Source of the DNA: Schmidtea polychroa
Lineage: Eukaryota
DNA: 64,000 bases
Direction: 5' to 3'
NCBI GenBank assembly: GCA_044892525.1
Contig: CM097885.1
Coordinates: forward strand, 27,034,001-27,098,000
Of this stretch, positions 12,826-13,263 are shown piece after piece. The position numbers were made by a program, and so were the translations under genes. The stretch's first letter is position 1. Each line of letters opens with the position of its first letter. The notes beneath the pieces were generated by a model, which worked only from the letters and a program-made list of their open reading frames with translations, was not told where the DNA came from and did no database searches.

Positions 12826-13263
12826 ATGTTAGCAAATATAAATTATCGAGGAAATTTTGATGTATCGAATATGAGGTTCCCACCAGGGAAACCTCAGCAA
12901 ATTATCGATAGAAGCGGGAAATATCCGATAATATTTTTCAAGACTGGTAAATGCCGAATCATGGGATGTAAGAAACCTTTGGATATTAATAAATTACAAT
13001 ATCGAATAAATAATATTAAAATCCAATCAATTACCGTTACTATGGATATGGGACATAGTATCAATCTATATAACATGTCTGAAAAATGTGATTGTATGTT
13101 TGAACCGGAATTGTTTCCGGCACTAAGACTAATAAAATATAACCCTATATGTGTCAACGTGTTTGCTAGTGGAAAGGTTGTCATGTTGGGGTTGAGAAAT
13201 TTGGAGTATAGAGAATTTGTTGACAATGTTCGAAATGAGATAATTTCATTGGTCGATTTTTAA
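12826..13263 (+). CDS. TATA-binding-protein-like protein encoded by the Polinton
   Basis: Two TBP repeats: IFFKTGKCRIMG; IQSITVTMD..FEPELFPAL..VFASGKVVMLG. Confidence 0.88.
   Translation: MLANINYRGNFDVSNMRFPPGKPQQIIDRSGKYPIIFFKTGKCRIMGCKKPLDINKLQYRINNIKIQSITVTMDMGHSINLYNMSEKCDCMFEPELFPALRLIKYNPICVNVFASGKVVMLGLRNLEYREFVDNVRNEIISLVDF

Follow-up and report, generated by a model that had tools for sequence, protein, structure and literature searches.

What does a gene for a TBP-like protein do inside a Polinton, and which promoters would its product serve? The question is raised by a 64,000-nucleotide stretch of the Schmidtea polychroa genome (hereafter the window), in which an earlier, sequence-only reading described a TBP gene head-to-head with a block of virion genes, and suggested that its product is a promoter-recognition factor or a TBP decoy, possibly acting in an early-to-late switch. 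Little has been established about when animal Polintons express their genes, or about whether these elements act as viruses, and we found no paper on the promoters of animal Polintons. A search of openly accessible papers on Polintons with TBP, TATA or promoter yielded a figure label only: Starrett et al. 2021 (PMC8502044) use "TBP" in the legend to Fig. 5, where viruses found in non-animal datasets are treated. The accessible portions of that paper and of the preprint (10.1101/697771) give no analysis, family or promoter for the gene so labelled, and no TBP is among the labels in the partial extraction of the animal-adintovirus maps (Fig. S2, PMC8502044). A viral TBP for late genes is a known kind of factor; in Polintons, the accessible part of this literature describes none beyond the label. 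From sequence comparisons, we consider it probable that the gene provides an early-made viral TBP that reads late promoters containing an ATAAAC box and recruits host TFIIB and RNA polymerase II (Pol II).

The TBP-like gene and its element

The ORF at 12826-13263 (plus strand) runs from ATG to TAA with no internal stop, and its intact 145-aa product is a TBP-fold protein. Pfam family PF00352 matches residues 63-125 at 57.5 bits (cut-off 22.9), a match confined to the C-terminal repeat, and every one of the 35 PDB sequences matching at E<=10 is a TBP or a TBP fusion. In a structure model built from a 96-sequence alignment (pLDDT 96), the fold is predicted to cover all 145 residues as a two-lobed saddle; the model matches TBP structures in Foldseek at E 1e-9, and VIA-align places it on yeast TBP with Z 13.3 and an rmsd of 2.4 A over 145 aligned residues, the best non-TBP entry reaching Z 6.6. 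Structural matches were also found in BFVD, and in the ESM Atlas the protein matched generic TBP clusters only; the Atlas returned no match for the SSB-like neighbour protein, and cluster look-ups gave no informative names. The Foldseek and VIA-align scores dispose of the possibility, allowed for by the sequence-only reading, that the ORF has no TBP fold. Both TBP repeats and both motifs quoted in that reading are present, but the N-terminal repeat lacks its two helices (H1 and H2; the C-lobe is complete) and in the first motif K and G are separated by four residues instead of two. The description of the protein as shorter than cellular TBP and very divergent from it stands (about 24% identity, no N-terminal extension). 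It is a member of the TBP family, yet not a canonical TBP: it shares with cellular TBP the full-length saddle and residues F116, F190, F207, P191, N69, E186 and E188 (yeast numbering), and differs in the absence of H1, H2 and F99 and in a predicted polar DNA face.

The gene lies in a Polinton-type element, which has in common with Polintons, Mavericks and adintoviruses genes for PolB, a putative integrase, packaging ATPase, adenain and putative capsid proteins, with PLA2 in relatives; the window has about 30% GC, and the genome measures 781 Mb. The divergent ATPase-to-protease block proposed from the sequence alone was borne out, its genes all lying on the minus strand. Next to the TBP-like gene lies an A32-type packaging ATPase (12100-12726, 208 aa; PF04665, 30.3 bits against 22.8), and the 99-bp spacing between the two start codons (spacer 12727-12825, ATPase ATG at 12726) proved exact. 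It is followed by a basic protein of 177 aa (11548-12081), without a family match and probably a core protein to judge from composition and position, and by an integrase-like ORF (10407-11486) with an rve match of E 1e-5 and 26.2 bits, below the cut-off of 32.6, and a weak match to a chromodomain; a poly-Ile run within it resembles a GT-AG intron that consists of ATT microsatellite (about 11038-11099). A putative minor capsid protein (9394-10461, no family match), a conserved small protein of 123 aa (9030-9401) and a putative major capsid protein of 406 aa (7813-9033) come next. Both capsid labels derive from position, size and one weak match, that of Capsid_N (E 0.007) to a single homologue of the putative major capsid protein, whose profile found no match in PDB. 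The block ends with an adenain-type protease (7397-7787; PF00770, 27.8 bits against 21.3), which probably has a short 5' intron. Farther out lies an ORF of 1325 aa for a protein-primed family B DNA polymerase (539-4516, minus strand); three of its homologues exceed the PF03175 cut-off, and neither the ORF itself nor its closer homologue L009 matches that family.

On the plus strand, the TBP-like gene is accompanied by a 98-aa gene that is spliced and by an SSB-like gene (14115-14525, 136 aa), the last a frequent neighbour of TBP genes with an ordinary TATA upstream. Its product models with moderate support as an OB-fold protein (Z 6.8-7.2) resembling the single-stranded-DNA-binding proteins T7 gp2.5 and ASFV CP312R, and we rejected it as a TFIIB-like partner on this account. 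The right arm (16600-17463) has a probable element end at 17463, with a terminal motif that we take to be typical of Polintons; its 29 AP-1-type TGA(G/C)TCA sites lie in palindromic repeats between 16600 and 17350, possibly a stress-responsive enhancer. No TIR pair was found in bases 1-22000, and the element probably begins upstream of the first base of the window. Besides that in the integrase, short GT-AG intron candidates occur in the protease (7740-7782) and the 98-aa gene (13386-13434). Related tandem repeats (143-301 and 4847-5517) stand on either side of the polymerase ORF, and an acidic, apparently multi-exon gene at 6226-6950 has ATAAAC at 6984-6989. Outside the element there are host-type ORFs for a TIR-domain protein (38876-39394), a proteasome subunit (56016-56612) and a protein kinase (61650-62450).

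Relatives, origin and selection

A 26-base word of the TBP-like gene occurs 781 times in the genome, corresponding to at least 781 copies of the subfamily, and the best 150 protein matches of 4172 first-look candidates are 99-100% identical and stop-free. The presence of the gene in sister elements was borne out at all six own-genome loci chosen by their ATPase, two of them with broken copies (L158, L162); broken copies also occur at L130, L134 and L137. Outside this genome we found 109 relatives. The metagenomic set comprises 80 loci kept of 183 confirmed, 35 with a Polinton core gene and 13 more with an SSB gene; most of the remainder are short contigs.

The head-to-head arrangement with the virion block, as first described, is a trait of the own-genome families (29/30 and 20/20 loci). 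It is found in only 2 of the 26 metagenomic loci with both genes, the other 24 having them on the same strand, and we therefore rejected it as a general mechanism. Other own-genome subfamilies (L122-L141, L157-L162) encode TBP-like proteins 53-62% identical to that of the window next to ATPases with mostly 85-100% identity. In L161 the tendency is opposite (91% and 87%), and the spacer has the look of a site at which element arms are exchanged.

Phylogenetic analysis covered 56 rows: 44 of the family, 12 of them without known genomic context, plus the six genes of the host, five cellular TBPs and a single TBP from a viral contig. A branch with 100/100 support separates the 44 family rows from the host, cellular and viral-contig TBPs. 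A clade of the window protein and the host genes is rejected (p-AU 3e-90), which refutes nesting among host TBP copies and, at the level of sequence, rules out recent capture of a host TBP. A clade of the whole family with the six host genes is not rejected (p-AU 0.09), and the family may have an ancient eukaryotic origin. Estimates of dN/dS are 0.08-0.32 for six pairs of own-genome subfamilies, with dS near saturation, and 0.10-0.45 for metagenomic pairs, of which 6 of 276 had a usable synonymous distance; over this full range of 0.08-0.45 the notion of neutral evolution fails, and the sequences indicate that the family is under purifying selection.

That the gene is a passenger, a recently captured host TBP copy now in decay, has on these data almost no chance of being right. 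Some copies are broken, as expected of old insertions, but the 109 relatives, dN/dS values well below 1, the rejected host clade and the gene's occurrence at six of six loci all speak against it, and in the form of a recent capture it is already refuted.

Protein surfaces and promoter boxes

Residues were counted at yeast positions in 96 sequences, the N-lobe map being made by hand and compared with alignment A6. Among the conserved positions are F116 (95 of 96), F190 and F207 (96 each), E188 (95) and E186 (Glu in 93, Asp in 3); N69, P191 and L189 are also kept. Other positions carry near-fixed substitutions: V71N (91), F99P (95), V122R (95), T124M (96), I194R (94), V203C (96) and L205N (96), along with N159S. 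Three of the four DNA-kinking phenylalanines are retained (F116, F190, F207) and the fourth, F99, is replaced by proline in 95 of 96, so that a check of the intercalating pairs gives a divided answer; overall, the DNA face is predicted to be more polar than that of canonical TBP. Positions I194, V203 and L205 are those of TBPm3, an altered-specificity TBP mutant, and lie near base pair 2 of the box according to the accessible text of PMC1636458; the 5' half of the box is accordingly read by the C-lobe, and its 3' half would be read by the N-lobe.

The surfaces for general factors are likewise divided. Stirrup residues E186, E188 and L189 contact TFIIB (available text of PMC7111264 and PMC7221094), and both glutamates are conserved here. 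By contrast, the helix that would dock TFIIA is missing: the model has no helix of 4 or more residues ahead of position 81, the N-lobe helix spans are about 9 (H1) and 12 (H2) residues short, and the span G47-Q67 has a median of 21 against 33. The basic patch of H2 is described as a common docking site of TFIIA, TAF1, Mot1 and Brf1 (PMC7221094, available text). Relatives of 167-179 aa retain the N-lobe helix segments, yet share R44, M46 and N111, residues found in every one of the 20 element rows in alignment A6; the change of the DNA face is therefore family-wide, and the loss of helices a subfamily trait.

These surfaces bear on the decoy option of the sequence-only reading. Worked out further, that option would make ATAAAC a weak TATA for host TBP or a paralogue, and the viral protein would mainly sequester TFIIB or block host TATA boxes and so damp transcription, either that of the host or the early one of the virus. 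Few surfaces are kept as well as the TFIIB stirrup, and the loss of F99 with the changes at N159 and T124 could weaken DNA binding; a decoy would, however, have little reason to fix new DNA-face residues such as R44, M46 and N111.

For a factor that reads DNA, a candidate target emerged upstream of the structural genes. When 16 own-genome spacers from four subfamilies were aligned, the only block in common was ATAAAC on the ATPase strand, present in 15, the sixteenth having a TA expansion. Of 26 metagenomic loci with an ATPase match, 24 were readable and 22 remained after de-duplication; ATAAAC, the best of the hexamers ranked upstream of the ATPase, lies 31-49 nt before the ATG in 20 of these 22 (0.92 expected), although the lineages with the box are mutually related, so that p-values overstate their independence. 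The other two ATPases have no box within 70 nt. The box, mostly YATAAACR, is conserved and its flanks are not, among ATPases that are 34-94% identical (median 40%). It is also retained within coding sequence while the encoded residues vary, in 23 of 24 ATPase tails (YKQ, HKR, NKH) and in 7 of 7 small-protein tails, where it uses codons of frequency 0.45 and 0.31. The window has 83 ATAAAC matches against 92.6 expected; we accordingly rejected the idea that the word is merely common, and the signal is one of position, not of abundance. For the ATPase promoters, a poly(A) signal was rejected as well, since the base preceding the 20 ATPase boxes is T in 13, C in 6, G in 1 and never A, and no gene ends at the boxes of the window; elsewhere, some copies of ATAAAC share bases with a stop codon and may serve as AATAAA too.

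Sorted by ORF cluster, the box precedes ATPase genes in 17/22 cases with starts at the first ATG, PLA2 in 10/13, basic proteins in 11/11 and 6/8, the major capsid protein in 7/12, the minor capsid protein in 5/8 and the integrase in 5/12. It is infrequent before TBP-like (3/60), SSB (2/19), polymerase (1/7), small-protein (1/7) and protease (0/6) genes, and before antisense pseudo-ORFs it was found in 0/9 and 0/7. Upstream of the TBP gene, ATAAAC occurs in 2 of 54 cases and an ordinary TATA in 28 of 54 (3.4 expected), about half of the TBP genes having no ordinary TATA in the interval tested. As judged from upstream sequence, there are two classes of promoter sorted by gene type, the protease, small-protein and integrase genes and the two ATPases without a box being exceptions. 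A further exception is an unnamed family of about 159 aa (L076:2341-2814 and relatives), with no Pfam match among the members scanned, which is often near the TBP gene and has ATAAAC in 13 of 24 cases.

The divergent spacer of the window holds one candidate of each class: an ATAAAC box (TATAAACA here; 12753-12758, minus strand) 32 nt before the ATPase ATG, a candidate late promoter for which CATAAACA and TATAAAAG were named as comparison sequences, and an ordinary TATA box (TATATAAA; 12792-12799, plus strand) 34 nt before the TBP-like ATG, a candidate early promoter. Further minus-strand copies of ATAAAC lie in the last ATPase codons (12108-12113), 32 nt before the basic-protein ATG; at 11546-11551, immediately upstream of a 75-aa ORF and at a distance of 65 nt from the integrase ATG; in the integrase tail (10475-10480), ahead of the putative minor capsid gene; at 9496, 100 nt before the small-protein gene; and at 9069-9074, in the tail of the small-protein gene and 41 nt upstream of the ATG of the putative major capsid gene. 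The protease is preceded by an ordinary TATAAAT, not ATAAAC, and the polymerase ORF has no ATAAAC within 70 nt before its ATG.

Position 7 separates the classes further and returns us to the decoy. It is A or T in 42 of 48 xATAWA boxes before TBP genes, and C in 23 of 37 boxes before ATPases and in 9 of 9 before capsid genes, whereas a TATA read by the host should accept A or T there. Host TBP does make weak use of a TATAAAC-type box (TATAAACG, 27% activity in plant protoplasts; PMC10005294, Table 4), and the extra host TBP and TFIIB paralogues described below could read it. We nevertheless regard a decoy as unlikely, though worth keeping in mind, and as the less economical of the two functions first suggested; the promoter-recognition factor, with its possible early-to-late switch, has gained in ATAAAC a candidate target.

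A further alternative is a deregulated TBP that boosts all element promoters with no real preference, the box belonging to another viral or host factor. Loss of the regulator-binding helix would fit a constitutive TBP, and near the gene lie several conserved ORFs for which no family match was obtained. Yet the DNA-face substitutions are near-invariant and not drifting, the box is TATA-like in both sequence and spacing, and the longer relatives, which keep both helices, share the DNA-face changes and the box too; we find a general booster distinctly unlikely.

Polintons without the TBP-like gene offer a control for the pairing of an ATAAAC-reading TBP with its box. Among five Polinton contigs found by their ATPase alone, the only one with a TBP-like gene also has the box before its ATPase, and the four in which no such gene was found have ATAAAC at 0 of 15 starts. 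These four are partial, so that a TBP-like gene may have been missed, and three are related and GC-rich (51-56%), a composition that lowers the chance of a box; the result is suggestive of the pairing, which is one of co-occurrence in sequence. More TBP-less relatives were sought in viral contigs by ATPase and capsid scans and none was confirmed; a scan for long-family TBPs gave zero loci, and the phage collection zero matches. In three TBP-less contigs (L143-L145), words like TATAAG and TATAG are similarly placed upstream of the ATPase gene and the basic-protein gene and may represent a further class of promoter. The fragments L142-L146 are Polinton pieces binned in bacterial MAGs, probably contamination from eukaryotic hosts.

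Host machinery and known viral systems

Among the sequencing runs listed for the sequence, none is recorded as RNA; four guessed to be RNA were compared with 11110-13780. One contig of run X1 has a GT-AG joint at 13385-13435, within the 98-aa gene, and contigs of run X4 end loosely in poly(A)-like sequence on the minus strand at 11420 and 12056 and on the plus strand at 13760; the element family thus appears to be spliced and polyadenylated, like Pol II products. Contigs cover parts of the TBP-like gene in all four runs, and one X1 contig bridges the spacer, which means that DNA may be present. An X4 contig ends at 12736, 23 nt behind the start of the box, a possible 5' end of the ATPase RNA; the contig end presumably includes sequencing adaptor.

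By sequence matches, the host has an expanded set of basal factors: about six TBP-family genes, with several divergent TBP and TFIIB paralogues. Of 21 TFIIB matches, 13 lie in uninterrupted frames of 301-310 aa, in two clusters (C3:38.2-39.1 Mb and C1:23.8-24.2 Mb); two TFIIBs of these clusters (L155, L156) are 35% identical to canonical TFIIB, and L156 adjoins a Polinton integrase fragment. No TFIIB (PF00382) was found among 58 element ORFs of 123 listed, from partial contigs, plus the window ORFs; the 20 window ORFs scanned had no match, in a search that could miss spliced genes. Nor did Pfam identify herpesvirus-type partner activators among the 58 element ORFs, many of which are family-less.

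We take EBV BcRF1 and HCMV UL87 to be TBP mimics of beta- and gammaherpesviruses alongside KSHV ORF24. The element protein resembles ORF24, as described in the accessible text of PMC12529657, in being a viral TBP fold with a polar DNA face, and would resemble it in its association with a non-standard short late box and with ordinary promoters for earlier genes, and in the use of host Pol II; in the elements, the corresponding sequence pattern is a non-standard box before structural genes and an ordinary TATA before others. In ORF24, an additional N-terminal domain binds Pol II directly and a C-terminal one binds DNA; the protein requires five further viral factors, has no TFIIB-binding glutamates and recognises TATTWAA (PMC12529657, same text). 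The element protein, in contrast, is a bare 145-aa core without such extra domains, keeps the TFIIB glutamates and is paired with ATAAAC. By analogy, it would work like ORF24 without being a member of the ORF24 family.

The herpesvirus case also suggests a larger viral initiation complex with element-encoded partners, late transcription there requiring six viral factors (PMC12529657, accessible text), and the many unannotated accessory ORFs leave room for such partners; alternatively, the protein could bind DNA for packaging or replication, its gene often lying beside the SSB gene. We judge this pair of readings very unlikely. No accessory ORF accompanies the TBP-like gene at all loci, the TFIIB-contact residues missing in ORF24 are kept here, and the boxes keep a constant spacing to the start codon that follows, away from the termini.

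Like the TBPs of NCLDVs, the element protein is virus-encoded and has a degenerate N-lobe regulator surface (PMC7221094, available text). Nearly all NCLDVs, however, encode TFIIB, and their first stirrup glutamate is only about 40% conserved (same source), whereas the elements have Glu in 93 of 96 sequences at that position and no TFIIB among the 58 ORFs, a combination that points to the use of host TFIIB. TRF2 is likewise a divergent TBP that has lost an intercalating phenylalanine (PMC10005294, accessible text). TRF2/TBPL1 are host paralogues, and the element protein differs from them in being element-encoded, in existing in hundreds of copies and in its 100/100 separation from the six host genes.

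Under the reading that we prefer, that of an altered-specificity viral TBP, host TBP/TFIID would first transcribe the TBP-like gene early from its ordinary TATA. The protein made keeps the saddle, three kinking phenylalanines and the acidic C-lobe stirrup, with a DNA face that is predicted to be rebuilt as polar. It would bind ATAAAC some 30-45 nt before packaging, capsid, core and PLA2 genes, and the most altered lobe would read the 3' half of the box, where the invariant C lies. It would then recruit host TFIIB and hence host Pol II; no TFIIB or RNA polymerase was found in the elements. In the subfamily of the window, loss of H2 may free the protein from control by TAF1, Mot1/BTAF1, TFIIA and Brf1, so that it would work outside TFIID. 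The complete version of this proposal, a minimal switch made of one altered-specificity TBP of 145-170 aa, an orthogonal ATAAAC promoter and host TFIIB and Pol II, spread over a broad Polinton clade as a real early-to-late programme, with a subfamily that has shed the regulator helix, we regard as evenly poised between right and wrong.

If true, the proposal would add a third design of viral TBP beside the herpesvirus complex and the giant-virus pair of TBP and TFIIB, and it would provide regulatory evidence for a virion-building stage in integrated elements. A dedicated TBP with its box would offer a handle on both factor and motif, as well as an annotation rule for structural genes. As a natural minimal TBP, the protein separates the TFIIB surface from the regulator surface; it may show how TBP specificity can be rewritten, which would help in the design of orthogonal promoters. 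As one subfamily has at least 781 copies in the genome, even slight expression could touch host transcription.
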